Positions 496 to 53,946 of a stretch of DNA of 64,000 nt are shown here, piece after piece (within the stretch, counting starts at the first letter, position 1; each line of letters begins with the position of its first letter). The position numbers were made by a program, and so were the translations under genes. The DNA comes from Eledone cirrhosa (Eukaryota), in NCBI GenBank assembly GCA_964016885.1, contig OZ024743.1:30690001-30754000 (forward strand). Reading direction: 5' to 3'. A model generated the notes under the pieces. It did no database searches and was not told where the DNA came from. It saw only the letters and a program-made list of their open reading frames with translations.

Positions 496-707
496 GGCGA
501 CTTATGTAGTAAATCGTATCATCGTGAGCTCCGCAAAGGTTTGTTATTTTCAGTTGTTTAAAATTGCCCTTCATGGAAAATGTTATTGTTAACTCTATAT
601 AAGTGCACATACAATGTTATCTGAAAAGTACACCCAAAAAGATTGGGGCCTTGAGCCCAAAATTTAAACTTTTATAATTATCAAACAAACATTTTTTTTG
701 AAAAATC

Positions 708-2596
708 ATGGCTGACTCAGAGTCACTACTTTCTCACAAACTAACACCTCACACCGACATATCCATTGTAAATATTACTACGTTTGCCAAGACTAAAAAT
801 ATATGCAGTAGCAATATTTTAAATTTGTCTCAGGCAGACATTCATTTCCCGCCATTACCAATGACTGCAGGTGTTAAAGACGCCACCACCACCAACACTG
901 CGACAACCACCACCCCCACCACCACCGCGACAACAGAAACAAAAGAAACAAATTAATTAACTCGTGATATCGAAATGAATTCAGCCAATATGAACTCTTC
1001 CACACCGAACACCACTGACGCCACCGCCACCACACCTGAAACTGAAATTAAAAAATAACAAAAATAACGATAACAAGAACAGCAACAATGTCAATAAGAA
1101 CGCCACCCTGAGTTTTGCCAGAGTAGCAAAAAATGCGAAGCATTTCAGGTAACTCAGGAGGAATTAGAAGAAGCCAAAATAATTGTAAAGAAAGATGGGT
1201 ACAGGGTTAACCCCCCCCCTACACCTAATAAGATGGAGCAACATCGCCTATGCACCGTGTCTTATCGGACAATCAACATAAAATCGCGCCGAGTGGAACG
1301 GGCATACGTGTCCCAAATCCAAAAAAGCTTTGGGACATGTGTGGGCAAAAAAAACCCACATCGGACGTCGGCAGAAGTATGGAACCGTGGACCTGTTCTT
1401 TGAAACACCAGAGGAGGCTAGAGAACACTCCATGGCCCACACTCGTCCCAAGCTATTGTGGCCAGAGGCTCGTAAAGTTCAGGGTCACCCACGTTCCACC
1501 GGCCATCGCAATTCCCTGGCTAATAGCTGCTGTCCTCGCCGGCATCGAGACCAACACCAAGATAATCGAAATAGCGAAAGAAAAGCAGGAGAACTGGTCC
1601 GGATCGGGGATGGAGCTCCTGATCCAAGCGGACCAAAAAAGCATTGAGGAGATCCCAGAGGTAATCGACCTCACTAACGGCAGCCATCTCACCGTAATAG
1701 TCGAGGGCAGAAGGCCTAGGTTCGTCGATTGTGGTGAAGGAACCCACCTAAGGGCTTTCTACACTCAGGATAAAAGTGTGAAGCCACCTCTCCTACCCAC
1801 CCCAGTGACCTAACCACCAACACCACCAGAACAGGAGAGGCAGCAACAACCTCAGCAACAGTAGCAAAACCAACACCACCACCACACAACGCTTCAGAAC
1901 TAGCACCAGCGCCTACACCATCCACCACGCCACAACCAAAACTAACGCCTGTGGAGGATTTTCTCCACCCCGGCCTACCACAACTGGAAACAGATTGTGA
2001 CGACAAGGAGTGGGAAACGGTATCAGGAAAAAAGAACAAAGAAACCAGCAAAGAAAAAATTCTCTTCCTTCCCCCTCCAAAAAAAAAATACAGAGGGAAA
2101 CAAATAAACTATCAAACAAAAAAGTTATGACAGATAATGCACCATCCACACCAGCGTCATCAACCCCATCACCCAAAACACCAACACCATCACCATCATT
2201 AACCCCAACACTACCATCACCTACTCCACAAAAGTCACCAAAAAGCGAAACAGAAACAAACCCACAACAAGCACAAACAAAACAAAACAACCAACACGAT
2301 ACACACTACACAGCATTAAATTTGAACAACAACCAATTATTACACTACATCCAACAAAACACCAGCTTCACATAAAAAGACTACACAACAACCCAAAAGT
2401 TCACACCGCCTCCACACATACAAATCACTCGCATCACACAGAAAACGTACATGACACTAAAACAAAAATTGCCCAAAGACATCGGAGACTTCCGACAAGC
2501 ACTCTTCAGGAGGATTTATAGGGACATCTTTCCTGAGAGGCCACAAGCAGTGAATAGGATGGAGAAACCGTCCTTCCTCTACGAGGAGTAAGGTAA
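708..2596 (+). pseudogene. Tx1 ORF1, frameshifted, degenerate zinc knuckle
   Basis: Fragments align with ORF1 of the 28283-34149 copy (PSYCGQ, THV, EG.RP..C...THLRAF); Thr/Pro-rich linkers. Confidence 0.8.
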
Positions 2597-2632
2597 GTGG
2601 TCTTTCCCATCTTTTCCACTCCATTTCACAAC

Positions 2633-5600: not shown

Positions 5601-5847
5601 AGTGCAGGCAGTTTTTATCTGTCTGGTGGCCATGGCGAAAGAGATAGTATGGTGGACACGTTTGAAAGGGCTGAAGACGAGCACTTACCTCTTCGGTGAT
5701 GCTCTGATTGACTTTTTCAAATTTCATTTGAAAAGGAAAATCAGGGTAGTAAGAGAAGTGCTCTCTTCCCAGCATTTTGTTGAAAGATGTGTGAGAGAGG
5801 CAAGAATGGACCGAGTTAATGGGCCTACTCTGAGTATGTGTCTGTAA
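2633..5847 (+). pseudogene. Tx1 ORF2 (APE endonuclease + RT), disrupted
   Basis: APE motifs SINAR, VGDWN, YLDR, TDH; RT motifs KSPALDG, FRPITLLN, LDQSKAFD, QGCPL, AYGDD; start ATG appears mutated to AAG at 2633; internal deletion near 5055. Confidence 0.92.
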
Positions 5848-6254
5848 ATTAAAGGTGGAAAACTGGGAGAGAGCACTTGCCCTGGTGGTCAGGGTCACTG
5901 TGGCTTTTTTATGGGCTTTCTCCACGAATGTCCCTCGGAAATCTACCCCCATTGGGGAATTCTTTCATTGTTCTATTATTACATCCTCTGTTTCTTGTTT
6001 TTTACACGCAGAAATGCCCATTTGTACCGTCCTGTATTGTCTTGTACTGTCCTTAATGTCTACTTTATGTAAATCCTTGTGGTTAATAAAGAAAGCATTA
6101 TTATTATATTTATTATTTTTATGTTTATTCTAAATTTTGCTGTCTTGTATCGCTGTCAACTTAATAATATATTTTTTAATTTTTTGATTTTCTTAATCCT
6201 TATTTTTATTTGCTTCTTTTTATGTGACGGCCTACTATGATTATTTATCCTTAT

Positions 6255-10348: not shown

Positions 10349-12070
10349 TTAGACGGGGTCCGTATTTGTTAATAAAGTAAGATTCCTTGCTGATACGCTG
10401 GGTGTGGGTGGCATTATCTTTAAATTTGTAGAGGGAAAGATTCTGAAGTTGGGATGATTTTGGGCGGCACAGGTATCAATGTGTTCACTTAGTAGTATTT
10501 TCCTGTATTCCCGTATTTTAATTTGGGATCTATGGACAGTCATGCGTTGGCGGAGGCTGTTTTTGGTCTGGCCTATGTATTGTTCTCGACAACCTGAGCA
10601 AGTTAATACATATATTAGATTTTCTGATGCGCATGTAAAATTGTGTTTTACTATAAAACGTTGTCCTTTTTTGAAATAGAATTCCGAAACCTCTATTAGG
10701 TTTATGCAAATGCCACAGTTGGGTCTACCGCATTTTTTTACTGTGGGTTTCGTTGTTGTGGTTGGCAGTACTTTGGCATGTGTTAGGATGTTTTTCATTG
10801 ACTTAGATTGTCTTTTGCTCTTTATAATATCGTGTGTTCGTAGGATTTGGTTGATTCTATGGTCCTTTTTCAACACAGGCATGTTCTGGCGGATGGTGTC
10901 AAAGGCCTCATTGTTGAGGGGGTTGCGTGTGGAGATGTATGGAAGAGCTTTTATTTTCGGTTGATTTACTTTAGGGTGTCTAAGGTCCTGGGTACTGAGT
11001 TTTAGCGCCCGTTGGATTCCATTGTCAATTAGTGATGCAGGATAGTCCCTGCCTATGAGTGTGTCCTTTAGTTCTTGTAGCCGTAAGTAGCAGGTGTTTT
11101 TATTAGAGACTATAGTACAGATTCTCTTGGCTAAGTTGTAGGGAATATTAATGTTAACGTGTCTAGGGTGGCAAGAGTTGAAAGGAAGATATTGCTTGGA
11201 GTCTGTGGGCTTGTAGTATATGTCTGTTTCTATTGTTTGTTATGGATCTTAATGAGGATGTCGCGGAAGGGGATTTGCTGATGGCTGTATTCCATCGTGA
11301 AGTTAATATTCGTGTTGAGCCCATTTATAATGGTGTGAAATTCTTTAAGTTTCTCGATGTTTTCGTGCCAAAGGATGAAGCAGTCATCTTGATATCGCTT
11401 CAAGTTCCTTTCTATGTGTAAGTGGAGAGTGTTTCCAAATTTGTTTAGGGCTTTATTGTAGAGGGTGATTTCCAGGTATCCCATGACTAGGTTGGCATAA
11501 GTGGGGGCTGTTTTCGTTCCCATAGCGGCCCCAGATTTCTGCCTGTAGGGTTTGTTATTGAAAACGAAGTAATTGTTCTCCAAGATAAATTTGAGTCCCT
11601 CTATCACGAATTCTTTTTTGATGCGCTGTGGGAGTTCATTGTGGTAATTATCCAGCCAGAATTGGATAGCTTCTATTCCTAGGTTGTGGGGGATGTTGGA
11701 GTATAGGTGGACTACATCGAACGTCACTAGTAGGGTTTGTTCAGAAAGTGGCATATTAGGGTGGTGATTGAGCATATCTAGGTCGTCCCTTATATAGCTT
11801 ATGATGTGTTTGAGAAAAGGCTTGAGAAGGGTATCAATGAAGTTGCTAAGGCGGTGGGTTTCGCAAGCGGGGCCTGCTATTATAGGTCTTAATTTGAGAT
11901 CATTGGGTGAGGGGACATTGATGACTATGTTTGTGGCTTCCGTGCATGCCTTACTTATTAATTCGCTTTTATGTACTTTATGGATACCGTAGAAAAGGCT
12001 GGATTTACTTGTGAAGTCTGTGATGAAGCTGAATTCCTTGTTAGTGAGTCCTTCTTTGTATTGGTTGATC
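10349..12070 (-). pseudogene. PLE RT + GIY-YIG endonuclease, disrupted
   Basis: ORFs 11230-11775 and 10349-10882. Confidence 0.88.
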
Positions 12071-12454
12071 AGACCTTGTATTGGTTGATCAGACTTATTT
12101 CTCAGTCAGCCGACACAAACCTAGACTTGGCGCAAAATCAATTTTTTACATTCACATGACCTATACCGACCAATCAAAATTGTTTTGACCACAAGAATTT
12201 TTGCAACATGAATTGGCGCAAAACTTATTTTAATACCGCTGGAGCCATTTTTTAACATAAAAACAGGTAGAATTTCCAAGACTAATCAGATCAGAGCAAA
12301 CATCACAGACGGTCTATCTCAAAATTATTTTTGAAAAGCATTAGAAATGCGCAACCGGTATAACTTAAAAACAATACTATTACTAAGTTTTGCTTATTCC
12401 TAATTAAACTATTTTTCACTGGCAAAAATTTGTCAGCATTTTCTTTTCCTTTTA

Positions 12455-19604: not shown

Positions 19605-21135
19605 GCTAACCGGGACAAGTCCATCGGTTTGCAACTCGGATCGTGGAGAGGCAGACCGATGCCTTCCGATGGCGTCGTCGGACGCTGGACGGAAGGACCG
19701 GTAAAGCTGCTCGGAGTCTGGTTTGGTCGGGACCTCCACGTGGAGAAGAACTGGAACGAAGTGACGGCCAAGGTGTTTGCACTCACCCAGAAGTGGGCCG
19801 AGTGCAAACTATCCTTGAAAGGTCGAGCGGAGGTGGCGAACACTTTTATAGCGTCCACCATCTACTACCACTTGACCGTCGTGCCTTGTCCAGCCAAAAC
19901 GCTCGCCAAAATGGAGCGCGCGCTCTTCCGATTCCTTTGGAAGAGGCGGGCTCCTTTGGTGAGAAGATCCATCTGCTGCCAACACCCTTCTAACGGAGGG
20001 CTGGGGATGCCGTGGTTGACGATGCGCAAACACGCGCTCAGGCTGCGCCATCTCTACGTATTCCTAACCGGACAACCGGTGTGGGCCCCGTTCGTGAGGC
20101 GAGCCTTCCCACGACTCGTCTCGCTGACCGAGCTGCAGTCCTGGGTCAAGCAGAGACCGAGGAAAATGGGCGACTGGCACATCGAATGTGCTCAGGCGCT
20201 CACAGCCCTCTGGCAGGCGGACCCGGCGATCAGTGGAGACTCCACTTCATCATTCTATAGAGGGTTGGTCCGCAGCAAGTGCGACGACGCGCTCGGTGAA
20301 ACTCTAGGCGTAGAGGAAGATGAACTGGCCAGTCTGTTCGGTAGGACCTTCCGCCCGGTACCGATGGACAACTTCCAAAAGTCCCTGGCCTGGCAGTGCT
20401 ACCGAGGAGCTCTACCAGTTCGAGACAAGCTCTACAGACATGGGCGCCCGGGCAGGGACCCTGCAAAAAAGATCTGTCCGAGGTGCGTGCGAGACGAAGA
20501 AACCGTCGCGCACGCATTTATACACTGCCCGGGCGTCACTGACCTGTGGGGCTATGTAGAACGACTATTGTCGCGGGTGGGACCAATCCAGTTGACCACC
20601 GAGTCCATTGTCATGATCAAACCGCCACCCTCCTTCAAAAACGAAGGAGAGGCGGTTTTCCTTTGTGTGATAGCTATGGCGAAAGAGGTTGTATGGTGGA
20701 CAAGGTTGAAAGGGCTGAGGTCAGACACCTTTCTCTCCGGCCAACAACTGATTCTTTTTTTCAAATACCACTTTGGAAGAAGAATCAGGATGGAGAGAGA
20801 GGTGCTGTACCCCAGCAAGTTTTATGAAAGCTGAGTGAAAGTGGCGAGAATGGCCTGAGTGAGTGGGCCTTCTCTCTATATCAGCCTGTAGGTTGAGGAA
20901 AAGGAGGAGGAGAGGAAAGGAGTACAAGCTCTTCGTACTCCTGGAGATGAGGGTTGCACATTTTTTTTCGGGGGTATGTGTTACCCATATAAACTGTCTC
21001 CCTCTATTGGGGAATATCGACTAACTTTTAAATTCCATCTGTGATAACATTTTACACGTTTTTATTGTATGTAAACTTCCCCCTTTGTATTTGTCCCCTT
21101 CTTTTGTGCCCCTGTGGCTAATAAAGAAATATATA
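19605..21135 (+). mobile_element. Tx1 LINE subfamily B, 5'-truncated
   Basis: 401-aa ORF2 C-terminus (GGLGMP, CPRC..ET..H...C); 3'UTR ends CCCTGTGGCTAATAAAGAAA(TA)n; 3'UTR near-identical to the reverse complement of 53342-53600. Confidence 0.9.
19629..20834 (+). pseudogene. Tx1 ORF2 C-terminal part
   Basis: ORF track; premature TGA near the end. Confidence 0.88.
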
Positions 21136-21349: not shown

Positions 21350-21445
21350 TATTTATTTATTTACCACAGGGGCGTACAAATATCGGATATTACAAGACGC
21401 GACGGCGGGGGTTTTACATGAAATCTTTGACAATAATAATGAATA
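21350..21445 (-). mobile_element. Very short Tx1 3' tail fragment
   Basis: Minus strand ...CCCCTGTGGTAAATAAATAAATATAT resembles the other Tx1 termini. Confidence 0.55.
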
Positions 21446-21479
21446 ACAAGATCGATAGATAGATAGATAGGAAGATAGA

Positions 21480-22050
21480 TATGTTTCTTTTATTTGCCAC
21501 CAGGGCATCAAAAGTGGGACAAGTACAATGGGGGGAGTTTACAAAACAAGGCGTCCTCAATAAGGAGGAGGCAATGACAATATATAAAAATAAAATAAAA
21601 TATAACAAAAAATAAAATTTATAACATAGTCCTCAATAGAGAGGAGGCGCCTTGGGGGGTCGCACACCCCCCCGAAAAAAGTGTGCAACCCCTCTCCTCA
21701 GGAGCGCAGAGAAGGGGTGCTCCCTTGGTCTTTCATCTTCCTCACCTATAGTCTGATGTAGAGTGAAGGCCCATTCACACGGGCCATTCTCGCCACTTTC
21801 ACCCATCTTTCATAGAAACGGCTGGGGTGCAGCACCTCTCTCTCCATCCTGATCCTTCTTCCGAAATGATATCGGAAGAAACGGACCAGTTGTTGGCCAG
21901 AGAGAAAGGTGTCTGACCTCAGTCCTTTCAGACGCGTCCACCATACAACCTCTTTCGCCATGGCTATTACGCACAGAAACACCGCCTCTCCTTCGTTTTT
22001 GAAGAGGGGAGGCGGCTTGATCGTTACAATAGACTCGGTGGTCAACCGAG
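21480..22050 (-). mobile_element. Tx1 LINE subfamily C, short 3' fragment
   Basis: Near-identical to the reverse complement of 52670-53235; TAGA-type repeats on both flanks. Confidence 0.9.
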
Positions 22051-22406
22051 GAAGATAGATATATAGATAGATAGATAGAGAGAGAGATAGAGAGATAGAG
22101 TGAGAGAAAGAGGGATAGAAAGATAGATGGATAGAGAGAGAGAGAATGTGAGAGCGAGAGAGAATATATATATATATATATAATTGAGGCACAAAGCTAG
22201 TAAATATGAAACACATCAACATTAATTAAATCAACATCAGTTCTTGACTAGTATTCAATTTTCATCGACCCCAAAATAATGGAATGCAAATTATAATTCA
22301 GGCGGCATATGAAGTCCGAATGTAAAAAGCCAAAATAAAAATGACGCAATGGCATGTTACATGACGCTCAAAATATTTTCTCAATCCATAGCCGTCTCCT
22401 TATATG

Positions 22407-28276: not shown

Positions 28277-28428
28277 ATATAATGATTTCTTTATTTACCA
28301 CAATGGTTTACATAAAGTAGACATTAAGGACAGTGCAGGACAATACAGTACGGTACAAATTGGCATGTCTGCGTGTAAAAAACAAAAACAGAGGATGTAA
28401 CAAAAAAATAACAATGAAAAAGGCCCAT

Positions 28429-31400
28429 TCACTCGGGCCATCTTGCTTCTCTCACCAGTCTTTCAACAAAATGCTGGGAAGAGAGCACTTCCCTCTCTAC
28501 TCTGATTTTCCTTTTCAAATGAAATTTGAAAAAGTCAATCAGAACATCACCGAAGAGGTAAGTGCTCGTCTTCAGCCCTTTCAAACGTGTCCACCATACT
28601 ATCTCTTTTGCCATGGCCACCAGACAGATAAAAACTGCCTGCCCTTCCCGGCTAAAGGAGGAGGGCGGGGCAATCCTCACGATGGACTCAGATGATAGCC
28701 GGATCCGTCCTACACGCGACAGCAGGTGTTCGACATAAACACACAAGTCAGCAAATTTTCGGACGCTGGACGAGTGCGTGCAGGACGGTTTCGTCGCCCT
28801 GCGCGCATCTCGGACATGCCCGCCTGACGGCACCTCCATGCCTGTAGAGTTTATCCCGAACTGGCAAGGCTCCTCGGTAGCACTGCCAGGCCAGAGAGTT
28901 CTGGAAGTTGTCCATAGGCTCTGGTTCGAAAGTTCTTCCGAAGAGATTGGCTAGTTGATTTTCGTCGACGCCTAGAATTTCCCCAAGTACACGTCGCTCT
29001 TCCCCTCCACTAATCCTCGCTAGAACGCCGAGGTGGAGTTTCCACCGATCACATTGCCCGATTGGTCGAGGGCTGTGAGCACCTGAAGCCATTCCAGTCT
29101 CCAGGCGCTCCCTCACGGTCTTCACTTGACCCAGGACTGCAGCTCCGTCAAGGAGACGAGCTGGGGAAATATGTGTCTAGCAAACGGCGACCACACCTGA
29201 TCACCGTCGAGGAAGAGGTGGAGATGTCGTAGCCTGAGCGCGTGTCTGCGCATCATCAGCCACGGCATTCCCAGCCCTCCACGTAGCGGGTGTTGACAGC
29301 AGATGGACCGCCTAACCATCGGAGCGCGTCCCTTCCACAAAAAGCGAAAGAGCGAAAGAGCAAAAGCTCCAGCGCAGTCAGGCGGGGCTTAGGACAAGGT
29401 ACGACGGTCAGGCGGTAGCAGATGACAGACGCGATGTACGCGTTAGCCACCTCCGCTCGACCTTTCAGGGATAGCTTCATCTCCGCCCATTTCTGGGTGA
29501 GAGAAGCCACCCTGCTCGTCACCTCGTCCCAGTTTTTGTCCGTCTGGAGGTCAGGACCGAACCACACCCCTAGCAGTTTAACCGGTCCGTCCGTCCAGCG
29601 TCTGACGACGCTGTTGGACGGCATGGGCCTGCCTCTCCAGGTGCCGAGCTGCAGGCCCACTGACTTTTCCTGGTTGATCATTGCTCCTGTCACCGCTTCG
29701 TATTGTCGTAGTGTAGTGCCAATCGCCTCGATGTGTTCGGCGTTCGACACCACTACGTTGACATCGTCCGCATATGATGACACGGATCTTCCGCATCCTA
29801 GTTCGCGCGGGACGCCCCTCAACGTCTCCAGTTTGTGCAGTAAGGGCTCGAGAGTCAATACGTATAAGAGGGACGAGAGGGGACATCCTTCGCGGACCGA
29901 GCGCATGATGTTGAACGGTTCCGAAAGGTTACCGTTCACTCACACCACAGAGCAGATGTCGCTGTGCATGGCAGCGATCCAGCCTCTGAAGACGGGCCCA
30001 ATAACAGCCGCCCTCAGGACTGCCGCTAGGTAACGATGGTCGACTCTATCGAAAGCTTTCGACTGATCTAAATTGATCAAGGACCCACCCGTGCCAGGTT
30101 CCTTAGCTACCCTCTCTACGATGTATCGCATGAGGTAGAGGTTGTCGTGGATGGATCTGTCGGGAATGGCGCATGTCTGTGCCTCTCCCACCAGACCACC
30201 AACGACAAGCGCCAACTTCTTTGCTAGCACCTTGGCCAAAATCTTGAACTCTGTGTTTAGCAGAGTTATGGGCCTGAAATTATCTCTGTTATCCACCTTG
30301 TTCGGATCCGTTCTCAGCAGTGCCACCGCTCCTCGGCTCACAGAACTGGGAATTCTCCCGTTCTGTTGCCAGTTGCAGTAGACGTCCGCCAAGAGGCCTC
30401 CGAACAAGTCTGGCATCTGTACGTAAAGTTCATAGGGCTGACCATCCAAACCAGGCGATTTACCCCTTGTGCAGCCAGTCATTGCCTTCCTTGCTTCAGC
30501 GGCTATAATCGGCTTTTCGCAACACTCCGCCTCAGTGGCCGAGAACCGCGGTAGTCCGTCGAGGTAGACACTAAAGTCCATTCCTCGACCCGGCCCACCG
30601 CTGCCCCCGAACAGCTGAGTGAAGTGTCGCTGAAAAGCTTCACACATTTTCCCGGGATCGAGTAGCATGCGCCCGTCGTGGTCCACCAAAGACCGGGTCG
30701 TGGATTTGTTGCCACGACGCGCCTCCGCCACTCCAGCCCATTGAACGGCTTTCGTCCCCTCGTGTCTGAGAGCACGCACCCTAGCTCTGACTACGCAGCC
30801 TTCGTGCTTTGCATTGAAGAATTGGTCAAGGGCCAATTTCGCCGCAAGCACGTCGGTCGCAATGCCTTTGCTAGCGCCTCGTCTAATTTTCTAACTAGTT
30901 CTCCCTCTGCTCTATTTTTCTCTATTGCTAAAGCCTTACTAAAGCTAATGGATTCTATTCTAATCGCTCTTTTCAGAGCAACCACCACTTGTGGTTGACG
31001 ATGGCCCCCGTCAACGCCCGCTTAACTAGTTCGCTAATCCGGTCTCTGTAGGCCTTGCGCGCTGGTAAGGACGCGTTTAGCTTCCAGTAGCCGGGTCCTC
31101 GTCTATGAAGCCTATCTAAGTCAAGCACACACATCACGAATTTGTGGTCCCTGTAGCTGACTATCTTGAATTGTGGACAGCCTATGCTAAACCTATATAT
31201 TTCCCTACAAAATACTCTATCTAGATATGATCTGGATGACCCTATACGATTTGTCCAAGTCCACATTGGCAGATTCTTGAAATCCAATCGGTACCTGTCA
31301 GACAGTTCAAAACGCCTGAGCAGGTTGGTGAGGCTCTTGCACCATCCACCCCTATCCGCTAATCCCACACAGTCCCAGCGTGCATCTAAGATCCCGTTCC

Positions 31401-31824
31401 AGTCGCCCACTAACACTAAAGAGCGGGACGTTCCAAGAAAGGTCTCCAGACGCCGGAAGAAATCAGGCCGCCCTGCTCCTGTCGGGGCATAGACGGCCAC
31501 TAGCCTGAAAGCTTGCCCGCCTCCGCTGGTCACGTCCAGCACCACCAACTTACCCTCTGGGTCCAGGAAGATGACCCGTATGGCGAGATCCAAACCTCTC
31601 CGAAAAAGCACAGCAACTCTTCCCCCCGATCCAGGACGGCTGGGAGATGCGTACACATCGTAGCTGCCGAAGATCGGTGCGAAGGCCCGTGCTTCGGAGA
31701 TTCTGGTTTCGCTGATGGCCACTACATCTATGTTTAGTGACCTGAGGTCGTTGAGCAGGTGACCCTGCTTCCATGACGACACCAAGCCACGCGCATTTAT
31801 GCTGGCTATTCTGAGTGAGATCAT
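28429..31824 (-). pseudogene. Tx1 ORF2 (APE-RT-Cys), several frameshifts
   Basis: MISLRIASINARG, GDWN, YLDR, DH; KSPGLDG, FRPITLLN, KAFDRVDH, EGCPLS, SYADD; CPRC..ET..H. Confidence 0.93.
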
Positions 31825-31859
31825 GTTTAAAATAGAATGGAAAAGATGGGAAAGACCAC

Positions 31860-33933
31860 TTACCGTACTTTTCGTAGAGGAGGGATGGTTTTTCCATCCC
31901 TTTTCACTTGATCGTCTGGTGAAGGGACCTTTGAATCGTCCCTTCGGCTGGTTGTCGGCTCTTCTTTGAGTATGTCCGAATATTCTCTTCGATTGAGAGT
32001 CCCTCCTAGGTCTCTGAAATCACCAACTGCGTTGGGGAATTTCGTTTTAATGTTTGTGTATTGTTTCTGAGCTGTTTTTAGCAGTCTTATGTTAGTTGGC
32101 GTTTTGATTGGTGCTGGTATTATGTAGTCGTGTTGTGAAATGTATGTGTGTTTAATTATGTAAGTCATTAGTTTCTTGTTGCGTGTATTTATTGTCGTGC
32201 ATTTGTTTTTCTGGGCTTGGGGTGTGGTTCTGCTATTTTCTTGTTGTTGTTGCTGGGTGTGTGTGTTTTGTTGTTGTGTTTGCGATGTTGGTGCTTGTGG
32301 GGGTGGTGTTGAAAGTGTTGTTGTTGTTGGCGGTGGGGTTGTCGTCGGTGGTGATGGTGATGCTAGTGTGGGTGGTGATGGTGTTGGTAGTGTTGCTGCT
32401 GTGAGTCTCTTTGCAGTAGCCTTTACCCTTTTGTCATTTCTTTCCCCCCTTTTCGAAGGCGACGATGCGCTGCTTCTGCGTTTGTGCTTTCTTACGACCT
32501 TTTGCCATCCCTCTCCTACCTCACACTCCATGTCTGATTCTGTGAGGTCGGGGAGGGGTACCAGCTCCACTCTTTCACTTGTTGTTGGTGATGTTTGCAC
32601 TAGAGTCTCTGTTGCAGCTGCATTTGGTATTGCTGTTGTTGTTGTTAATACTTCCACTGCTGCTGCTGTTTTTGATTTCCGTGGCGTGGGTATGGGTGCC
32701 ACGGACCTATCGTTCCTGGTTGCCGCTTGTCCTGTTGCTGGTAGCCGTGGAACCTGTTTCGGAAGGAGGGGGGGGGTTCTCTTTTCTCAGGGTCTTCTCG
32801 TTGCAGAAGGCCCTGAGGTGAGTCTTCGATCCACAGCGAATGCATTTCGGGCGTTTGCCCTCAACACTTATGGGCAATTGAGTGCCGTTATCGAAGTCTA
32901 TCACATCCGGGATAGCTTCGATGCACTCCTGGTTGGTTTGGATTAACATCTCAATGGAGGTGCCAACCCAATCTTCTCTTACTTTTTTCTGTACTTGCAT
33001 TACAGTTGTTTTGTCCTCGATTCCGTCGAGGACAGATGCGGGCAGCCAAGAAGGGGCCATCCCGGGATGGACGTGGGTCAGTTTGACCCTCACAATCTTT
33101 TGCCCGCAGTAGGAGGGCACCAACAACATTTCCTCGCTCCTTAGGGTCACTAAGGATTGATCCTTTGCCTCCTGGAGTGTGGCAAAAAGTACGTCTACGG
33201 TGGCATATTTCTTGCCTCGGGTGATGTGCGTTTTCCGCTGCCACACAGACCCCAAGGCTTTTTGTATTTGAGCCTCTGTGGCTCTTTCAACACTACGGGA
33301 TTTTGTACTTACTGTACGGTACGTGACCGTACAGTGCTGTTGGGTTTCGAAAAATGTTTCCGCTGCCTTGCAGATTGCTCGGTGTCCGATTTTTGTCACC
33401 GTCTTCTTCGCTTCCTCAAATTCCTCATTTGTTATGAGGTTCGTTTCCAGGTTCTTTGCGATACCTGCAAACGAGATTGGTTTTTCTTTGCTGCTGTTGT
33501 TGTTGTCGTCGTCAGAGCTGCTGTTACTTTTGCTGTTGCTGCAGGTACTACGACTACTGCCGCGGCCGCTGTTGCTGTGGTTGTTGTTGTTGTTGCTGCT
33601 GCTAATGCTGTTGTTGTTTATGCTGCTGCTGATGCTGTTGCGGCTGCTACTGTTGTTTTGATTGTCAATGTTGCTGTTGTTATTACGGCTGCTACTGCTA
33701 TTATTCCTGACGTCAGACGAATGAAATGGGTTTTCGTATTTCCCGGAAACCTATTTCGTCGTTGTTGTCGTCGTGGAGAAATATTGCACGCTTTGCACGA
33801 GACTTTTCTTTTCTGTCGTCGCTTGCGAAAGAGAAGGGAGGGAGAGAGACACATTTAAAGAAGTAGTGACGATTGAGGAAGAAGAAGACGGAATGAGTGG
33901 GAGTGACCTATGAAAATTATTTTTCGTAGCCAT
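31860..33933 (-). pseudogene. Tx1 ORF1 with CX2CX4HX4C zinc knuckle
   Basis: CIRCGSKTHLRAFC; ATG at 33933; stop about 35 nt before the ORF2 ATG. Confidence 0.85.
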
Positions 33934-34148
33934 GTTGTTTTTTTGTTTAAAATAAATATTGGGCACAAAACCCCAATAAGCAGTTATTTAACCCCGAAGG
34001 CCCAAATAAGGGACAGAAAGCCCCCTCTCACGAGGAGGAGGGTGTTTTTGTCTACAAGTTGGTTAAAGTTTTAAACAATTTACAATTGTTATAGCGTTCA
34101 AAATTTACAATATCTTACAGAGCCGAGCCTCCGTCAACCATAGCATTC

Positions 34149-34149
<1 letters not shown>

Positions 34150-34185
<36 letters not shown>

Positions 34186-34204
34186 TTAATAATAATAATA
34201 ATAA
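34150..34204. repeat. (TAA)n tract between head-to-head Tx1 and R4
   Basis: Direct reading. Confidence 0.95.
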
Positions 34205-37200
34205 ATGATAAAGAAATGAATGAGAATGAACTTGCCAACTTGAAGGATGAAATTATGATCGAATGGATGAAAATGAAAGAATCTGACATGGGGCACCGAG
34301 ACACCCTCCCTAAGATCCAGAACTCCAAACAGAACCAAAAGATAATACACAAGACTAACATAATTCTCAAAAACATTATCATCACAAACAAACTAAACAT
34401 TACTGATTTAAATCATCTCTATTATGCATCGGCTAAAGTCACCACTCACTTATGTGGAGTAAAGACGAAAAAACAAAGGAATTCCCACAAGAAATCTACT
34501 TGGCAAGAGAACATCAATCGCCAAATAAACCTTCTCCGATCTGACATTGAAATTTTAACAAACTATAAAGTAGGTGAACATGTTAAACAAACTAAACTTA
34601 GAAAATTGAAAAAAAAGTACAGTATAAAATCAACATGTGACATAGACATGCTGATAGAAATAATCAAGCAAAAAGTGTCGGCCAAAGCTGCTCGTATAAG
34701 GCGCTTTGCAAAACGATCTAGATTCTATAAGGACAATAATATGTTCAAAAACAACCAAAGAAACTTCTACAGAAAAATTGGTAAGTCAACAATAACTGCT
34801 AAATCAATACCACCCAAGGAGGAAGTGCAAGAATTCTGGGAAAAGATATGGACCGAAGAAAAAGTTCATAACATACATGCCCCATGGATAGATAGACAAA
34901 TAAAAGATACAGCTCACCTTGAGCAACAAACATGGGAAAATATAACAGTTGAACAGTTGCGCTTGGCTCTAACAAAAACCAGCAAATGGAAATCCCCAGG
35001 AAAAGACAAAATACAAAACTGTTGGATAAATGCCTTCACAGAGTCTCATGAGCTGTTAGCCCAACTTTACAATGAAATAGTTAAGGAGCTAGAAAAGATA
35101 CCATCATGGCTAGTTAACGGCATTACATTCCTGCTTCCGAAGAATGATGAGACAAACAATACCAAAAATTACAGACCGATAACTTGCTTGACAACAATAT
35201 ATAAAATGTTATCATCAGTCCTAACTGAATACACATATGACCACCTGATAACAAATGACCTATTTCCCATTGAGCAGAAAGGGTGTAATAGAGGCTCATA
35301 TGGCTGTAAGGATCAGCTTCTGGTTAACAAAATGATACTGGATACATAATAGACACAAAAAGCTATCGATTGCTTGGATAGATTATAAAAAAGCATTCGA
35401 TAGTTTGCCACACAGTTGGATTGAAAAATGTTTAGAGATTTTCAAAATATCCCCCGTTGTCAGGAGGTTTTTGTCATTCAGTATGAAGACATGGAAAACG
35501 ACACTCCTTTTGAATAGTGAAACAAAATCACTGGAAGCTGGAGAAGTTAATATTAATTGTGGAATTTTTCAGGGTGACTCTTTATCACCGCTTTTATTCT
35601 GCATCGAACTTATACCATTAAGTAAAATGCTCAATGAAACAAAACATGGATATAAAGTCTATGACAAAACCATTAATCACCTGTTCTACATGGTACATGG
35701 ATGACCTGAAACTATTTGCAAAAAATGATGAACAATTGCAAGGGCTATTATCCACTGTGAAGCAGTTCAGTGATGACATTAAAATGGAGTTTGGACTAGA
35801 TAAATGCGCTAAAGCAACGTTCACCAGAGGAAAGCTGCTGAAGAGTTCAGACATTAATCTTGATCGGGGGAACGTGATAAGAGAACTTGATCAAGAAAAA
35901 ACTTACAAATATCTAGCACTCGACAATGAGGGAAAGGATAAGGAAGGAATGTTACCGCAGAGTAAGAGCAATCTTAAGAACGGAATTGAATGCAAGGAAT
36001 AGGATCGATGCCATAAACATGCTTGCCATACCAGTAGTAACCTACAGTAACAATGTCATCAACTTGTCAAGCACAGAGATCCGTAGGCTTGACACAAAAA
36101 TTCGAAAATTCTTAACCATGGACAGAATGCATCACCCTAAGGCAGATATAGATAGAATATATCTCCCTAGGAAAGAAGGAGGACGAGGGTTAATCCAGTT
36201 AGACATTACGTTGAAAACTGCAACAATTGGATTATCTACATATCTAAGGGAATCACATGATTGGATGATCAAACTCGTTTTGAAACACGAAAGCATCAAA
36301 AGATCATATTCCATTACAAAAGATGCACAAAGATAGAGTAATGGACTACAAATTTCAGAAGTCCCATTTACTGCTGAAATGGAAAACACAGAAAAAGCAA
36401 AGCAGGTAAAAGTAACTGCAAAGAAAGAACTGCTAGAGAAACTGGCTAAGAAATGGCAAGAAATGCCTCTGTATGGAAAATACCCAGATCGAGCTAACAA
36501 TCCTGATGTTGACAAAACTTTAACCCATCAGTGGTTGGCATCCTTTGGACTGAAATCGGAGACTGAATGACTGATTATATCGGCACAATATCAGTGTCTG
36601 CCAACAAAAAATTACCAAGCCAACATAATCAAAAATGGGTGCAGCCCATTATGCCGTGTATGCAAAAAACAACCAGAGACCATTGGCCATATAATTTCAA
36701 CGTGCAGTACTATAGCTCGAACCGAATACCTAAACAGGCATGACAGAGCTGCACAATACATACATTGGATAATGTGTAAGCATTTTGACCTGCCCCATCA
36801 AAAGAATTGGTGGGAGCATCAACCACCTCCCATACTTGAAAAAGATCACATCTCAATCTTGTGGAACTTTAGCATCCAAACAGACCGAAAAATAGATGCA
36901 AATAGACCTGATATAATATTGAAGGACTTTCAAAAGAGGGTATGCCTGCTAATTGATATGTCTGTTCCAATAGACAAGAATGTATCTATAAAAACATTTG
37001 AAAAATTGAGCAAGTATAAGGACCTGGAGATAGAAATTGGAAAAATGTGGAGATTGAGAACTAAAACAATACCAGTGGTTGTAGACGCTCTGGGAATGAT
37101 ACCTAAGGGGTCTAATGACTACTTATCGCAAATCCCAGGAAACCCGCCTATAGGAGAAATACAAAAGAAAGTACTAATGGGAACTGCCCATATACTAAGG

Positions 37201-37380
37201 AACATTCTGTCAATATATGTACATCACAAGTCTAAACACTAAAGATGCATGTGTGAATATGTATGTTCTTTCTTGAACATGGCGGACCTTGTTGTCTCTT
37301 GAGGTCACTGGTTGTGACTTGGTGATAACTCATATGAACATAAAGCAAGATAAATGCAACTGTAATAATAATAATAATAA
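34205..37380 (+). mobile_element. R4/Dong LINE, 5'-truncated, disrupted RT-RLE ORF (34216-37242)
   Basis: WKSPGKD, NYRPITCL, EQKGC, GIFQGDSLSPL, YMDD (broken by a 7-bp duplication), CCHC region, RHD, NRPDII..D; ends in (TAA)n. Confidence 0.92.
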
Positions 37381-38269: not shown

Positions 38270-41200
38270 TCTTTTCTGCCTGTGTGTTTGTTTGTTTATT
38301 TGTGTTCGTCTACAGCGTGGTGATAATGCCACACAAGTGCCGAGTGGAGCGGCGCAAAGACCGGCGACGGTGAATCCACAGATGGCTATGTAACCATACA
38401 ATCGCCAATCCTCGATAAGAGTGTTTAAATATCGAACCTAAACAGTTCGAATAACGGTGAAATGGAGACTAGAACGTCATGTGACATACTCTCACCCAAC
38501 AGGTGCTCCCTGGCTCAGCAGCAGGAACCTGACTGTCAACCAAATACTGCTGATGTTGGAGGAAGAAGAAGAAGGAAAAGGGGCCAGAACCAACTGGACG
38601 AAAGAATTGAATAGAACTGTTATGCAATGTTACCTGAAAAGTAACTCCAAGGAGAGGGGCTATAGTAGACGGATGCATAACATCTGGAACGAGATTGGTC
38701 TATTTAAATTAGATGAACAAAAATTGGCCGGGCAGGCTCGGGTAATAAGAACTAATGGGTGGATAAGCGAGCTGGAACTGGAGGAACTGAGCAGAGAGAA
38801 TAGCTTGGAGATGGAGGGTGTAGTATGCCAGACAAACGAGCCAGTGGGAAATGAAGGTGAAGAGGTCGACAGAACGGAGGAACCACCCGAAGCAGACAAT
38901 GATCTGAATACTGAGATAAATAATACCTGGAACAGAGATACGGCCACTGAGGAGATGAATGCTGACGGGCTAGGACAAGATTCGGTTGACATCCTAAATT
39001 TAGTGGTAGATGAACTGAACAATGATAGTGGGAGACCTATGAACCTAAGATTTGTAGACAGGAAAAAGTTAAAAGAAACAACAGCTAAGGTAAACAAAGT
39101 CATCTCATACCTTGAGGCGAGGAGCCTTCACCAGTGCAACAATATCCTCAAAGCAAAAGCAAATACGGTGAGGAAACTACTTGGTATAAAAGCGAGAGGA
39201 AACAACAGACAAGAAAGAGCAGAGCCTTGGTGGAAGAAACGACTGAGTGGTCAAATCAAGGAAATGAGAAATGACATAGGAAAGCTTGAGTCACTACTGA
39301 ATGGGACACTAAAAAACATAGGCACTAAAAATAGACTGGAAATAAAGTACAAAACTAGGAGGAAAAAGCTAAATATTATCATAGAGGAACTGAAGCCACG
39401 CATTGTAGCAAAGAGTGCAAAAATCAGGCGATACGAGAACAGAGTCAGTCAGTATAAACAGAACCGCATGTTCGACAACAACCAGAAGATGTTGTTTGGA
39501 CAGCTTGAGGGGAAAGAAAGAGGCAACGACTTGATCCCTGGGGCGGAACAAACTAAAACATTCTGGAGAGGAAAATGGGAGCAGGATGTTAGACATAATG
39601 ACCAGGCAGGGTGGATTGAGACAGTACAGAGGGAGATCGGTGAGCAGGCACACCAACAAACTGATTTGAGTATCACAGTTGAAACTCTTAAGGGGCAGGC
39701 CAAAAAACTAACCAACTGGAAATCACCAGGCCCAGATGGTGTGCAGGGGCATTGGATTACAAATTTAACATCCCTCCACCCGAAGCTGACGGCCATGTTC
39801 AATGACTGCTTGGTGTCGGGTGAGGTGCCAGAGTGGTTGACAAAATGTACCACAGTTCTGATAATGAAAGACCGAATCAAGGTTGATGATGTTACCAACT
39901 ATAGACCCATCACATGTCTGTCCGTAATGTGGAAACTGTTGACGAGCATTGTGTCTGCGGAAATCTACCATCACCTCCACACAAACAACTTGTTACCGGA
40001 CGAACAGAAAGGATGCCGAAAGAAGTCACGTGGTACAAAGGACCAGTTACTTATTGATAAGATGGTAATGGGGAATTGCAGGAGGAGACACACTGATCTT
40101 GCCATGGGATGGGTAGACTACAAAAAGGCATTTGACATGGTGCCTCATTCTTGGATCACCAAAAGCCTGGAGATCTTCAAAGTGGCAGATAACATCAGAC
40201 AGTTGCTGGGCAGGAGCATGGGGTCCTGGGAGACAGAGTTGACATCAACTGGAGAATCCTTGAGAAGCGTGAAGATCAAGAGAGGTATCTTCCAGGGAGA
40301 TAGCCTGTCCCCTCTGTTGTTTGTCCTTGCCTTGATGCCCTTGACCATTATGCTGCGAAAAGTGAGAGCAGGATACAAGTTGGGAAAGGTAGAGCTTACC
40401 ATCAATCACCCCCTCTTCATGAACGATCTCAAGCTCTTCGGGAAGAGTGAGAAGGAGTTGGATGTGCTTGTTGACACTGTCCGTATTTTCAGCAGTGATA
40501 TATGTATGCAGTTTGGTATTAGTAAATGTGGAGTCATTGTGATGAGGAAGGGTAGGTTGAGCAGAAGTAACGGAATCCAGATACCAACAGGTGAGATGAT
40601 AAAGGAAATTGACTCTGAGGAAGGATACAAGTATTTGGGCGATCTGGAGGCTGATGGCATAAAGAACAAAAAAATGAAGGAATTGTTAAGAACTGAATAC
40701 ATTCGGAGAGTAAGGAGCGTATTGAAGTCACATCTGAACAGCAGAAATGACATAAACGCAGTAAATTCCCGAGCTGTGTCTATTATTAGGTACAGTGCGG
40801 GAATTCTGAGATGGAATGTTGCTGAACAAAAAGAAATGGATAGGAAGACTAGGAAGCTATTGACTATCCACAACATGTTCCACAAGAGGAGTGATGTCGA
40901 TAGACTCTACCTAAGGACATCTGAGGGTGAAAGAGGTCTTATCAGCATAGAGGACTGTGTTCGAATGGAGAAAAACAACCTATACAAATACGTGACCTAT
41001 AGTAAGGAGCCAATGCTCAGAACTGTACTGAAGGAGGGGACAGTAGGCCAGGGGATGTCCAAGGAGGAAATAACATCAAGGAGAAAGAGCAGCCTTCAGG
41101 GAAAATCCCTTCATAGTACCTTCTTTGAGAAAACTGAATTTAGAGATCCACAGACATGGAACTGGTTGAGAAGAGGAGACCTCAAAAAGGCTACAGAAGG

Positions 41201-41956
41201 AATGCTAATGGCTGCGCAGGAGCAGGCCCTCAAAACGAAGTGGTTGAAGCACCATATTTACAGGGAGGAGGCTATCCCACTGTGCAGGATCTGTGGAGAG
41301 AGAGAGGAGATTGTGACTCACATTGTATCCGAGTGTAAACACCTAGCCCAGACCCACTATAAGGGCTGGAGACATGATGTGATGGGCAGGGTGATCCACT
41401 GGCACCTGTGCAAAGTAAACAATTTACCACATTCTGAGAAATGGTATGAGCATAGGCCAGAGGCGTTGATGGAGAACGATCAGGTGAAGGTGCTGTTGGA
41501 TTTTAGGATACAGACGGACAAGAAACTGGAACACAATAGACCTAACCTGGTGGTTGTGGACAAAAAAAAAAGATCGTGTCTGATTGTGGATGTAGCCTGC
41601 TCATTCGACACGAGAGTGCAAGAGAAGGAGAGGGAGAAAATTAACCGATACCAGGACCTAAAGTGGGAGGTGAAAAGGATTTGGAACTGCCATGAAGTCA
41701 AAGTGATCCCGATTGTCATAGGCGCACTGGGGACTATCACCAAAAGTTTCCAAGGATGGTTAAAGAAAATCGGCCCCTTCACGCTTTTTGGAACGCTTCA
41801 AAAGGCATGCTTGCTGGGAACAGCAAGTACCATCCGATACGTCCTGAATATCTGAGGCTGCAGGTAGTGGCTTGATATTCATTCCAACGGACTTTCCAGT
41901 TAACCAACACCAATGACTGAGATTCAAGGAATAACAACAATAATAATAATAATAAT
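38270..41956 (+). mobile_element. R4/Dong LINE, near full length
   Basis: Single RT-RLE ORF, short 3'UTR, (TAA)n tail. Confidence 0.93.
38457..41855 (+). CDS. R4/Dong RT + CCHC + RLE polyprotein (open, catalytic Asp residues mutated)
   Basis: WKSPGPDG, NYRPITCL, DYKKAFD, GIFQGDSLSPL, FMND (for YMDD), CRIC..E...HIVSEC, RHD, RPNL (for RPDL); true start uncertain. Confidence 0.9.
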   Translation: MKWRLERHVTYSHPTGAPWLSSRNLTVNQILLMLEEEEEGKGARTNWTKELNRTVMQCYLKSNSKERGYSRRMHNIWNEIGLFKLDEQKLAGQARVIRTNGWISELELEELSRENSLEMEGVVCQTNEPVGNEGEEVDRTEEPPEADNDLNTEINNTWNRDTATEEMNADGLGQDSVDILNLVVDELNNDSGRPMNLRFVDRKKLKETTAKVNKVISYLEARSLHQCNNILKAKANTVRKLLGIKARGNNRQERAEPWWKKRLSGQIKEMRNDIGKLESLLNGTLKNIGTKNRLEIKYKTRRKKLNIIIEELKPRIVAKSAKIRRYENRVSQYKQNRMFDNNQKMLFGQLEGKERGNDLIPGAEQTKTFWRGKWEQDVRHNDQAGWIETVQREIGEQAHQQTDLSITVETLKGQAKKLTNWKSPGPDGVQGHWITNLTSLHPKLTAMFNDCLVSGEVPEWLTKCTTVLIMKDRIKVDDVTNYRPITCLSVMWKLLTSIVSAEIYHHLHTNNLLPDEQKGCRKKSRGTKDQLLIDKMVMGNCRRRHTDLAMGWVDYKKAFDMVPHSWITKSLEIFKVADNIRQLLGRSMGSWETELTSTGESLRSVKIKRGIFQGDSLSPLLFVLALMPLTIMLRKVRAGYKLGKVELTINHPLFMNDLKLFGKSEKELDVLVDTVRIFSSDICMQFGISKCGVIVMRKGRLSRSNGIQIPTGEMIKEIDSEEGYKYLGDLEADGIKNKKMKELLRTEYIRRVRSVLKSHLNSRNDINAVNSRAVSIIRYSAGILRWNVAEQKEMDRKTRKLLTIHNMFHKRSDVDRLYLRTSEGERGLISIEDCVRMEKNNLYKYVTYSKEPMLRTVLKEGTVGQGMSKEEITSRRKSSLQGKSLHSTFFEKTEFRDPQTWNWLRRGDLKKATEGMLMAAQEQALKTKWLKHHIYREEAIPLCRICGEREEIVTHIVSECKHLAQTHYKGWRHDVMGRVIHWHLCKVNNLPHSEKWYEHRPEALMENDQVKVLLDFRIQTDKKLEHNRPNLVVVDKKKRSCLIVDVACSFDTRVQEKEREKINRYQDLKWEVKRIWNCHEVKVIPIVIGALGTITKSFQGWLKKIGPFTLFGTLQKACLLGTASTIRYVLNI

Positions 41957-50195: not shown

Positions 50196-50196
<1 letters not shown>

Positions 50197-50275
<79 letters not shown>
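50197..50275. repeat. (TCTA)n
   Basis: Direct reading. Confidence 0.97.
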
Positions 50276-50277
<2 letters not shown>

Positions 50278-53235
50278 GACAGAACTCATAGACAGGGACA
50301 CGGTTACTGGAAGCTCAACTTGTCTTTACCGGCAAGTAAGGCTTACAGGGACCGGATTAGCACTTTAGTTAAGGAGCGGTTGACGGGCGCCATCGTCAAC
50401 AGCAAGTGGTGGGGATCTCTCAAAAGAGAGATTAGAGTAGTCTCTATAGAAATAGGAAGGAAAGGGAGTTGGTAGATAGTGTAGAAGAGGCAATTAGAAG
50501 TGGCGACGTGACCAGAGTGCTAGCGTCGAGAACGGCCCTGGGCCAGTTCTTCGACGCGAAACACGAAGGCTGCATCGTCCGAAGCAAAATACGTGCTCTG
50601 GGAAACGAGGGGACCAAAGCTGTTAGCTGGGCCCGCGTGACAGAAGCCAAAAGAGGGAGCAGATCCACTATCCGGTCTTTGTGAGACCAGAATGGACGGG
50701 TGATCCTTGAACCTAAGCAGATGTGCGAGGCTTTTCAAAAGCACTTTGCCGGATTGTTCGTAAGGGGCGGGGGGCCGGTTGGGGATGTGGACTTCGGTCC
50801 ATACCTCGACGGCCTGCCGCGTCTCTCGGGCAGGGAGGCGAAGTCCTGCGAGGAGCCGATTTCAGCCGCTGAGATAGAGGACGTGCTGAGCCAATGCGGC
50901 AAACGCAAATCCCCGGGTCTCGATGGTCTTCCATACGAACTATATCTAGCTATGCCGGACTTGTTCCCCGATCTCCTCGAGGCGGTTTACTGCAACAGAA
51001 CGGGAGAATTCCCTTGCTGTGACCAAGGGCGTAGTCACGCTAGTGAGGAAGGACGAGAACAAGGGGGACGATATAAATAATTTCAGGCCCATAACTCTGC
51101 TAAATACAGATTTACAAATTTTGGCCAAGGTGCTAGCAAAGAGATTGGCGCTTGTCGTGGGCAACCTGGTGGGAGATGCGCAGACATGTGCTATCCCGTC
51201 CAGGTCCATCCACGACAACCTCCACCTCATGCGATACATCATAGAGAGGATTGGGAACGAACCCGGCTTTGGTGGGGCCCTGATCAACTTGGATCAATCT
51301 AAGGAATTCGATAGGGTCGACCATGGTTACCTGGATTCGGTGCTAGCGGCGGCAGGCTTCGGACCCGTTTTCAGAGGCTGGATCAATGCCATGCACAGCA
51401 GCCACATCTGCTCTAGTGTCAAGGTGAACGGCTACCTCTCGGAGCCGTTCGAAATCGCGCGGTCCATCCGACAGGGGTGCCCTCTCTCCTCCCTTCTGTA
51501 TGTAATGACTCTAGAGCCACTGCTGCGGAAGTTGGAGTTGTTGCAGGGCATCCCGTTGGAACCGGGATTGCGGAAAGCGGTGTCAGCCTATGCCGATGAC
51601 GTAACAGTAATGGTGTCGACGGCCTCGGAAATCGGGGCGATCGGCACCTGACTGGAGGAGTACGAAAGGTTTACAGGGGCTAAGCTGAACCGGGACAAGT
51701 CGATCGGTCTGCAACTCGGCACGTGGAGGGGAAGATCGATGCCCTCCGATGGCGTCGTCGGGCGCTGGACGGAGGGCCCGGTGAAGTTGCTCGGGGTCTG
51801 GTTCGGACCAGACCTCCAAGTGGAGAAGAACTGGGGTGAGGTAACGAACAGGGTGTTTGCACTGACCCAGAAGTGGGCCGAGTGCAAACTGTCCCTGAAA
51901 GGTCGGGCGGAGGTGGCGAACACTTATATAGCGTCCGTCATCTACTACCGCCTGACCGTTGTGCCTTGCCCAAGGGAAACGCTCGGCAAAATGGAGCGCG
52001 CACTCTTCCAATTCCTTTGGAAGAAGCGGGCTCCTATGGTGAGGAGATCCATCTGCTGTCAACACCCTTCGAAAGGAGGGCTGGGGATGCCGTGGCTAAT
52101 GATACGTAAACACGCATTAAGACTACGGCACCTCCAGGTATTCCTCTCCGGGCAACCGGTGTGGGCCCCGTTTGTGAGGCGAGCCTTTCCCAGACTCGTC
52201 TCACTCACCGAGTTGCCAATCCTGGGTCAAGCAAAGACCGAGAAAACTGGGCGCCTGGCACACCGAGTGTGCCCAGGCGCTCACGGCTCTCTGGCAGGCG
52301 GACCCGGCTGTCAGTGGAGAATCCACCTCGTCATTCTATAGAGGGCTGGTGGTTAGCAGGTGCGACGACGCCCTCGGAGAAGTCCTAGGCATGGAGGAAG
52401 ACGAACTGGCCAACCTGTTCGGTAGGACATTCAGCCCGGGACCCATGGACAACTTCCAGAGGTCCCTGGCCTGGCAATGCTACAGAAGGTCTCTGCCCGT
52501 TCGAGAAAGGCTCTACAGACACGGGCGCCTGGGTAGGGACCCATCGAAAAAGATCTGTCCCAGATGCGTGTGCGACGAGGAAACCGTTGCACACGCATTG
52601 GTACACTGCTCGGGCATTGCCGATCTGTGGGGATATGTAGAACAACTGCTGTCAAGGGTGGGACCGATCCGGTTGACCACCGAGTCTATTGTAACGATCA
52701 AGCCGCCTCCCTCTTCAAAAACGAAGGAGAGGCGGTGTTTCTGTGCGTAATAGCCATGGCGAAAGAGGTTGTATGGTGGACGCGTCTGAAAGGACTGAGG
52801 TCAGACACCTTTCTCTCTGGCCAACAACTGGTCCGTTTCTTCCGATATCATTTCGGAAGAAGGATCAGGATGGAGAGGGAGGTGCTGCACCCCAGCCGTT
52901 TCTATGAAAGATGGTTGAAAGTGGCGAGAATGGCCCGTGTGAATGGGCCTTCACTCTACATCAGACTATAGGTGAGGAAGATGAAAGACCAAGGGAGCAC
53001 CCCTTCTCTGTGCTCCTGAGGAGAAGGGTTGCACACTTTTTTCGGGGGTGTGTGCGACCCCCCAAGGCGCCTCCTCTCTATTGAGGACTTTGTTATAAAT
53101 TTTTTTTTTGTTATATTTTATTTTATTTTTATATATTGTTATTGCCTCCTCCTTATTGAGGACGCCTTGTTTCGTAAACTCCCCCCATTGTACTTGTCCC
53201 ACTTGTGATGCCCTGGTGGCAAATAAAAGAAACAT
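50276..53235 (+). mobile_element. Tx1 LINE subfamily C, 5'-truncated (RT + Cys domain), disrupted
   Basis: GYWKLN, KSPGLDG, FRPITLLN, RQGCPLS, AYADD, CPRC; starts and ends directly in (TCTA)n. Confidence 0.93.
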
Positions 53236-53261
53236 ATCTATCTATCTATCTATCTAACTAG

Positions 53262-53336
<75 letters not shown>

Positions 53337-53341
53337 GATAT
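53235..53341. repeat. (TCTA)n-AC-(TAGA)n strand-switching microsatellite
   Basis: Direct reading. Confidence 0.95.
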
Positions 53342-53845
53342 ATTTCTTTATTAGCCACAGGGGCACAAAAGAAGGGGACAAATACAAAGGGGGAAGTTTA
53401 CATACAATAAAAACGTGTAAAATGTTATCACAGATGGAATGTAAAAGTTAGTCGATTTTCCCCAATAGAGGGAGACAGTTTATATGGGTAACACATACCC
53501 CCGAAAAAAAATGTGAAACCCTCATCTCCAGGAGTACGAAGAGCTTGTACTCCTTTCCTCTCCTCCTCCTTTTCCTCAACCTACAGGCTGATATAGAGAG
53601 AAGGCCCATTCACTCGGGCCATTCTCGCCACTTTCACCCACCTTTAATAAAACTTGCTGGGGTACAGCACCTCTCTCTCCATCCTGATTCTTCTTCCAAA
53701 GTGGTATTTAAAAAAAAGAATCAGTTGTTGGCCGGAGAGAAAGGTGTCTGACCTCAGCCCTTTCAACCTTGTCCACCATACAACCTCTTTCGCCATAGCT
53801 ATCACACAAAGGAAAACCGCCTCTCCTTCGTTTTTGAAGGTGGGT
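53342..53845 (-). mobile_element. Tx1 LINE subfamily B, short 3' fragment
   Basis: Near-identical to the reverse complement of 20630-21135; (TAGA)n on both flanks. Confidence 0.9.
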
Positions 53846-53847
53846 AT

Positions 53848-53875
53848 ATAGATAGATAGATAGACAGATAGATCT

Positions 53876-53946
<71 letters not shown>
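53848..53946. repeat. (TAGA)n
   Basis: Direct reading. Confidence 0.97.

Follow-up and report, generated by a model that had tools for sequence, protein, structure and literature searches.

Two families of a single LINE lineage in the genome of Eledone cirrhosa, here labelled B and C, sit preferentially, and in one orientation, at the motif C-TATCT, mostly within (TCTA)n microsatellites, and the likely reason is a nick that their APE endonuclease makes in the GATA strand of this target. To judge from the arrangement of the sequences at the insertion sites, the choice of site is probably led by the endonuclease rather than by the tail of the RNA that is copied. The window, by which we mean the whole stretch of 64,000 nucleotides that was analysed, comes from a genome of 3.0 Gb and holds at least six copies of this lineage, which fall into three families, A, B and C.

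A preliminary description of the window had reported three insertions flanked at both ends by (TCTA)n on the element's sense strand and lacking poly(A), and re-reading of coordinates and flanks bore this out. The first is a 5'-truncated family-B LINE (50276-53235, + strand; 96.6% identical to the full-length B copy in L049), which starts at nt 2750 of 5742, directly behind an (ATCT)20 array (50196-50275, +), and covers amino acids about 244-1153 of ORF2, with Pfam RVT_1 and zf-RVT matches. This copy is dead, having frame changes and three stops, with its tblastn matches spread over several frames. Its 3' end carries an AATAAA-like signal and CAT, without poly(A), and is followed by (TATC)5 at 53235-53254. 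An inverted microsatellite of the form (TCTA)5-AAC-(TAGA)n (53236-53341, no strand assigned) serves as the 3' flank of this copy and of the next. The second insertion, a 503-bp 3' stub of family C (53342-53845, − strand; 98.8% to the full-length C copy in L239), has GATA runs on either side (53259-53341 and 53848-53943); the array at its 5' flank (53846-53946, −) reads (TCTA)n in the sense of the element. The B copy and the C stub stand tail to tail and follow the orientation of their respective arrays; the inverted tract between them could form a hairpin. The third insertion, now placed at 21483-22048 (− strand), is a 566-bp 3' stub of family B (98.8% to full-length B) with GATA runs on both sides and an exact 14-bp target-site duplication, whose 3' copy (21469-21482, −) includes a non-periodic part and whose 5' copy (22049-22062, −) borders on a degenerate TCTA/TC array that extends to about 22163. 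Directly behind this copy lies a 3' stub of about 100 bp from a further sister subfamily (21352-21448, −; recognised by eye against L237, without an alignment tool), with a TCTA run (21449-21481, by eye) at its own 5' junction. The 1.5-kb 3' part of a family-C element at 19605-21131 (+; 98.6% to full-length C) had been set apart as an exception, and it is one: it ends in (TA)6, there is a (TA)15 run 47 bases upstream, and TCTA, which was sought at its 5' junction, is absent there. Family A supplies the contrast case, a LINE of near full length (28283-34148, −) with (ATT)n at both ends, and a degraded full-length variant (496-6097, +) with (ATT)9 at its 5' end and an ATT run at its 3' end. The window also contains an RT-only LINE of another kind, present in two copies (34144-37240 and 38442-41852, +), each ending in (AAT)n and with a 1137-aa open frame that is 29% identical to Tx1 RT, as well as fragments of a Penelope-like element with RT and GIY-YIG domains (10349-12105, −).

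By domains, ORF1 knuckle, predicted fold, truncation and duplications, all of them read from sequence, A, B and C are a lineage of L1/Tx1-type LINEs. The Pfam domains of the lineage are Exo_endo_phos, RVT_1 and zf-RVT, and uninterrupted ORF2 frames of 1146-1156 aa are found in natural copies (L031, L047, L048 and L043). Tx1 ORF1 carries a CCHC knuckle, and reading of the upstream ORF1 revealed one of the form CX2CX4HX4C in both B (L031) and A (L321). ORF2 matches human L1 ORF2p over aa 12-863 (E 5.5e-46), while its match to R2 (E 3e-20) covers the RT only. Among the 120 RT matches listed, the nearest named homologue comes from Argonauta hians (66%), and no named Tx1, Kibi or Koshi sequence is present. 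With the endonuclease domain alone as query, one homologue and no relevant PDB sequence were obtained; the predicted fold of the B endonuclease (pLDDT 92.6) has L1-EN as its best match (1vyb, E 2.4e-18).

Across the genome, the flanks of B and C are highly regular at the 3' end. Exact 3'-end patterns occur 1,520 times for B, 6,155 times for C and 6,459 times for A, where the A pattern is the common form, since the form of the window copy matched that copy alone and was replaced. TATCT stands two bases past the end (NN-TATCT) in 1,293 of the 1,520 B ends (85%) and 5,500 of the 6,155 C ends (89%), and behind none of the A ends, counted with a pattern two bases shorter than the one that gave 6,459. 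Among 134 sampled copies, none has poly(A) behind it. Taken by themselves, these regularities would also be expected if a loosely specific endonuclease cut widely and only those sites that pair with an RNA 3' end of UAUCU or (UAUC)n primed reverse transcription, all the more as the read-through RNA of any copy would include the repeat and short annealing of target-like RNA has been proposed for SART1Bm and R1Bm (PMC7265360). At 13 of 104 B/C ends, however, the place of TATCT is taken by TATAT, TATTT, TCTCT or something else, which does not fit such RNA guidance; together with the register of the duplications discussed below, this makes it an unlikely explanation.

The 5' junctions bear on whether the repeats precede the insertions. 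Copies were sampled in order of position from the start of contig C1, to a total of 70 B, 34 C and 30 A, all within the first 150 Mb of this one contig. Four B copies (two open, one interrupted, one unreadable), two C copies (both open) and six A copies (four open, one unresolved chimera, one duplicate) were removed, leaving 66, 32 and 24, respectively. Calls against a single reference misplaced 5' ends where copies were variant or chimeric, and extension with multiple references mended only some of these ends; 13 junctions were reset by hand, among which the starts of L235, L243, L244 and L246 are without a second copy as confirmation. Contigs of three runs crossed none of the junctions. L235 also contains, at 2500-3130, a C-type copy inserted where a long (TCTATA/TCTATG)n hexamer array ends. 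Counting a run of 12 nt with at most one mismatch, no further than 25 nt from the junction, we found sense-strand TCTA at 35/66 B and 20/32 C junctions, together 55 of 98, and antisense TCTA at none of the 98. Random points show such a run in 0.18% of cases (20,000 points in 200 kb), so that the enrichment is about 300-fold and confined to the sense strand. It survives when full-length and tandem copies are dropped, with TCTA at 26 of the 60 truncated, non-tandem copies (B 19/45, C 7/15), and a separate best-hit sample gave 21/30 for B and 16/21 resolved junctions for C. The earlier expectation that a repeat at the 5' flank speaks for targeting, and that flank analysis of B and C against the genomic background would disclose an enrichment, is thereby upheld, also in view of the sister family A, which shows ATT at its 5' junctions and never TCTA (0/24). 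Since 43 of the 98 junctions lack the run, targeting is a strong preference and not an absolute rule. The lack of a run partly tracks age in C (TCTA at 13/13 young vs 7/19 older copies), but not in B (17/29 vs 18/37). B and C also sit, secondarily, at (TA)n and (TC)n: (TC)n flanks four of the 98 copies, and (TA)n flanks only five, although 200 kb of random DNA contain 344 (TA)n arrays as against nine (TCTA)n arrays.

Could the elements insert anywhere and give rise to the TCTA arrays on their own, through synthesis of a tail and slippage thereafter? The seeding of microsatellites by non-LTR elements is known (PMC3812793), and 30 of the 98 B/C copies lie directly behind the 3' end of another copy, in its tail, so that some of the targets are self-made. 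Against seeding as a general explanation stand the 5'-junction runs of the truncated, non-tandem copies and the duplications that reach into unique flank, where the motif must have been present before insertion; moreover, none of nine TCTA arrays drawn from random DNA had an element 3' end within 40 bases (by eye). We regard insertion without targeting as very improbable, and an element-made tail as the source of the TCTA flanks was rejected on the strength of the 5'-junction runs and of the duplications into unique flank. It is still less credible that the pattern merely reflects survival of copies in repeat-rich regions or joins made by the assembler at microsatellites. The genome is indeed rich in microsatellites, but neither process would be expected to yield a 55-to-0 strand bias, opposite repeats in sister families, a base-exact register and true target-site duplications.

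These duplications also bear on the choice between the enzyme and the RNA tail. Non-periodic, unique duplications of at least 8 nt were found in 17 of the 98 copies, as compared with 0.47 expected from mismatched flank pairs; when best-hit copies are included, there are 29, of which 22 measure 12-20 nt. The first letters of the unique duplications are TATCT, immediately adjoining the end of the element. When the start was left free, it fell in 14 of 19 duplications exactly two bases past the terminal GAAA, without an added TATC unit, while the remaining five sit in minisatellites or compound repeats. A long RNA tail annealing to the array would be expected to prime in any register and to add extra units, and in these 14 clean duplications not a single unit was added. 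In addition, a C immediately precedes the duplication in 23 of 29 cases. Sites without a preceding TATC have this C in 12 of 18 cases untrimmed and in 10 of the 13 kept by hand, against a background of 14%; the five sites trimmed were one doubtful match, two sites at the end of an earlier element, one pure repeat and one paralogous repeat, and several of the 13 "non-TATC" contexts are themselves degenerate TATC. The letter that the element has at the position of this C is A in 101 of 104 B/C ends, and the C lies on the non-priming side, outside the primer, so that it cannot be selected by pairing with the end of the element. This conserved C is the main argument for recognition by protein, to which pairing of a few bases is a possible helper. 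As the element end has the same letters as the target, the nick cannot be placed within T-A-T-C-T, and it is possible that 1-5 bases of RNA-DNA pairing form at the nick; a short pairing over one unit would be compatible with such a helper role. As a separate observation, independent-looking insertions are found at identical positions within paralogous repeats or minisatellites in four sets of copies (L213/L216, L172/L208/L214, L075/L188 and L298/L299), and these shared sites have just a short TATCT or ATTAT motif.

Under the reading that we prefer, in which the endonuclease leads the choice of site, the APE endonuclease would nick the GATA strand at C-TATCT and the nick would free a primer. 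The element RNA, ending in ...GAAA-CAT or -TAT, would then be primed precisely at its end, with few paired bases at most, and a second cut about 12-20 nt further on would yield the target-site duplication. Such a duplication leaves the target on both sides of the new copy, and later copies can therefore stack head to tail. Truncation at the 5' end is common, affecting 83 of the 98 sampled B/C copies.

Family A offers a comparison within the lineage. ATT flanks the 5' junction in 14 of 24 A copies and in none of the 98 B/C copies, a signal that is weak once truncated, non-tandem copies alone count (3/13). The A copies (L292-L321) include 6-kb head-to-tail arrays, and two of them have (TTC)n at the 5' junction. 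Many A targets, by eye, are an ATT run that ends another repeat (3' flanks of L304, L305, L310, L296 and L300), and this repeat looks, again by eye, like the 3' terminus (41880-41956, −) of an unrelated LINE that lies at 38442-41956 of the window. From this resemblance, family A may be parasitising the tails of that LINE family. The B endonuclease is 81% identical to that of C and 61-62% identical to that of A, and its loop WANRSGTSR aligns with the T192-S202 hairpin of L1, whose grafting alters nicking profiles (PMC1950540). Among 55 loops, position 4 is Ile in all eight of A type, seven of them flanked by ATT; of the other 47, 46 have Ser and none has Ile. The Ile-loop copies form one clade (support 98/96, in a tree of 23 rows that include three partly out of frame), and since this is one change on the tree, the Ile/Ser contrast counts as one event and not as repeated evidence. 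It is tempting to speculate, although we consider it rather doubtful, that a small endonuclease change, to which Ser/Ile at the hairpin tip may belong, divided the lineage into a TATC and an ATT branch. Four chimeras (L311, L243, L059 and L174) join the 5' part and the 3' end of different subfamilies and, if more such copies are collected, could separate the enzyme from the tail; L311 is A-tailed, has a distinct Ile-loop endonuclease and a 5' end that is not resolvable. A fragment similar to the pol gene of an LTR retrotransposon lies in the flank of L311 (1-1000).

A GATA/TATC target and an ATT-targeting sister family extend the short list of microsatellite-specific LINEs, in a setting where the duplications let the insertion site be read base by base and the contrast between A and B/C makes the question of enzyme or RNA tail testable. 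The TATC preference also accounts for the head-to-tail LINE stacks in the Eledone cirrhosa genome, and it calls for caution with GATA microsatellite markers in this species, which often adjoin or include LINE ends. If the split into TATC and ATT branches is true, it would constitute a natural experiment on how an APE endonuclease changes its microsatellite target, with enzymes that are 61-62% identical, thousands of readable sites and uninterrupted natural frames in both branches.

Several known systems invite comparison. Human L1 makes its nick where a T-tract meets A. No poly(A) stands behind the B and C copies. Waldo, Mino and SART1 belong to the R1 clade and Dong to the R4 clade. Simple repeats are the targets of Waldo (ACAY), Mino (AC) and Dong (TAA) (PMC3812793) and of SART1Bm, which inserts with poly(A) into (TTAGG)n (PMC7265360); B and C likewise target simple repeats, and the TAA of Dong equals the TAA/ATT of family A. 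The mechanism of microsatellite targeting is described as not well understood in a review (PMC3812793). In Octopus vulgaris, 13 recently active L1-Tx1 families have been reported, in a paper whose main text mentions no target specificity and does not contain the word "target" (PMC13282606). Our search of the literature, with Repbase, Dfam and subscription journals outside it, found no GATA/TATC-specific Tx1. The endonuclease has the same fold and catalytic residues as Tx1L of Xenopus and the human L1 endonuclease (1vyb, 2v0r), and its loop has the length of L1's (PMC1950540). If the GATA strand is nicked at its TpA step, a position that is inferred, then 5'-AG lies downstream in 23 of the 29 B/C sites, as it does in the AGTT of Tx1L and the AGCT of a loop graft (PMC1950540), although Tx1L, unlike B and C, targets a DNA transposon. 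The closest parallels in habit are Kibi, at (TC)n, and Koshi, at (TTC)n, in teleost fish, and the crocodilian elements Tx1-1/5/6_Crp, Tx1-1_Gav and Tx1-2/3/5/8_AMi, at (TTCC)n/(TTTC)n (PMC4494074; PMC3812793). Tx1 elements have been classed as target-specific where the motif occurs in >20% of flanks (PMC4494074), and the B/C motif stands in more than half of the 5' flanks sampled. Like these elements, B and C are APE-type non-LTR retrotransposons found preferentially in a microsatellite; they differ in the repeat unit (TATC/GATA, and ATT in family A) and in the host, an octopod, in a comparison made by target and not by phylogeny. Taken together, the habit appears to be a known one of Tx1-type elements, with GATA/TATC as a new target.
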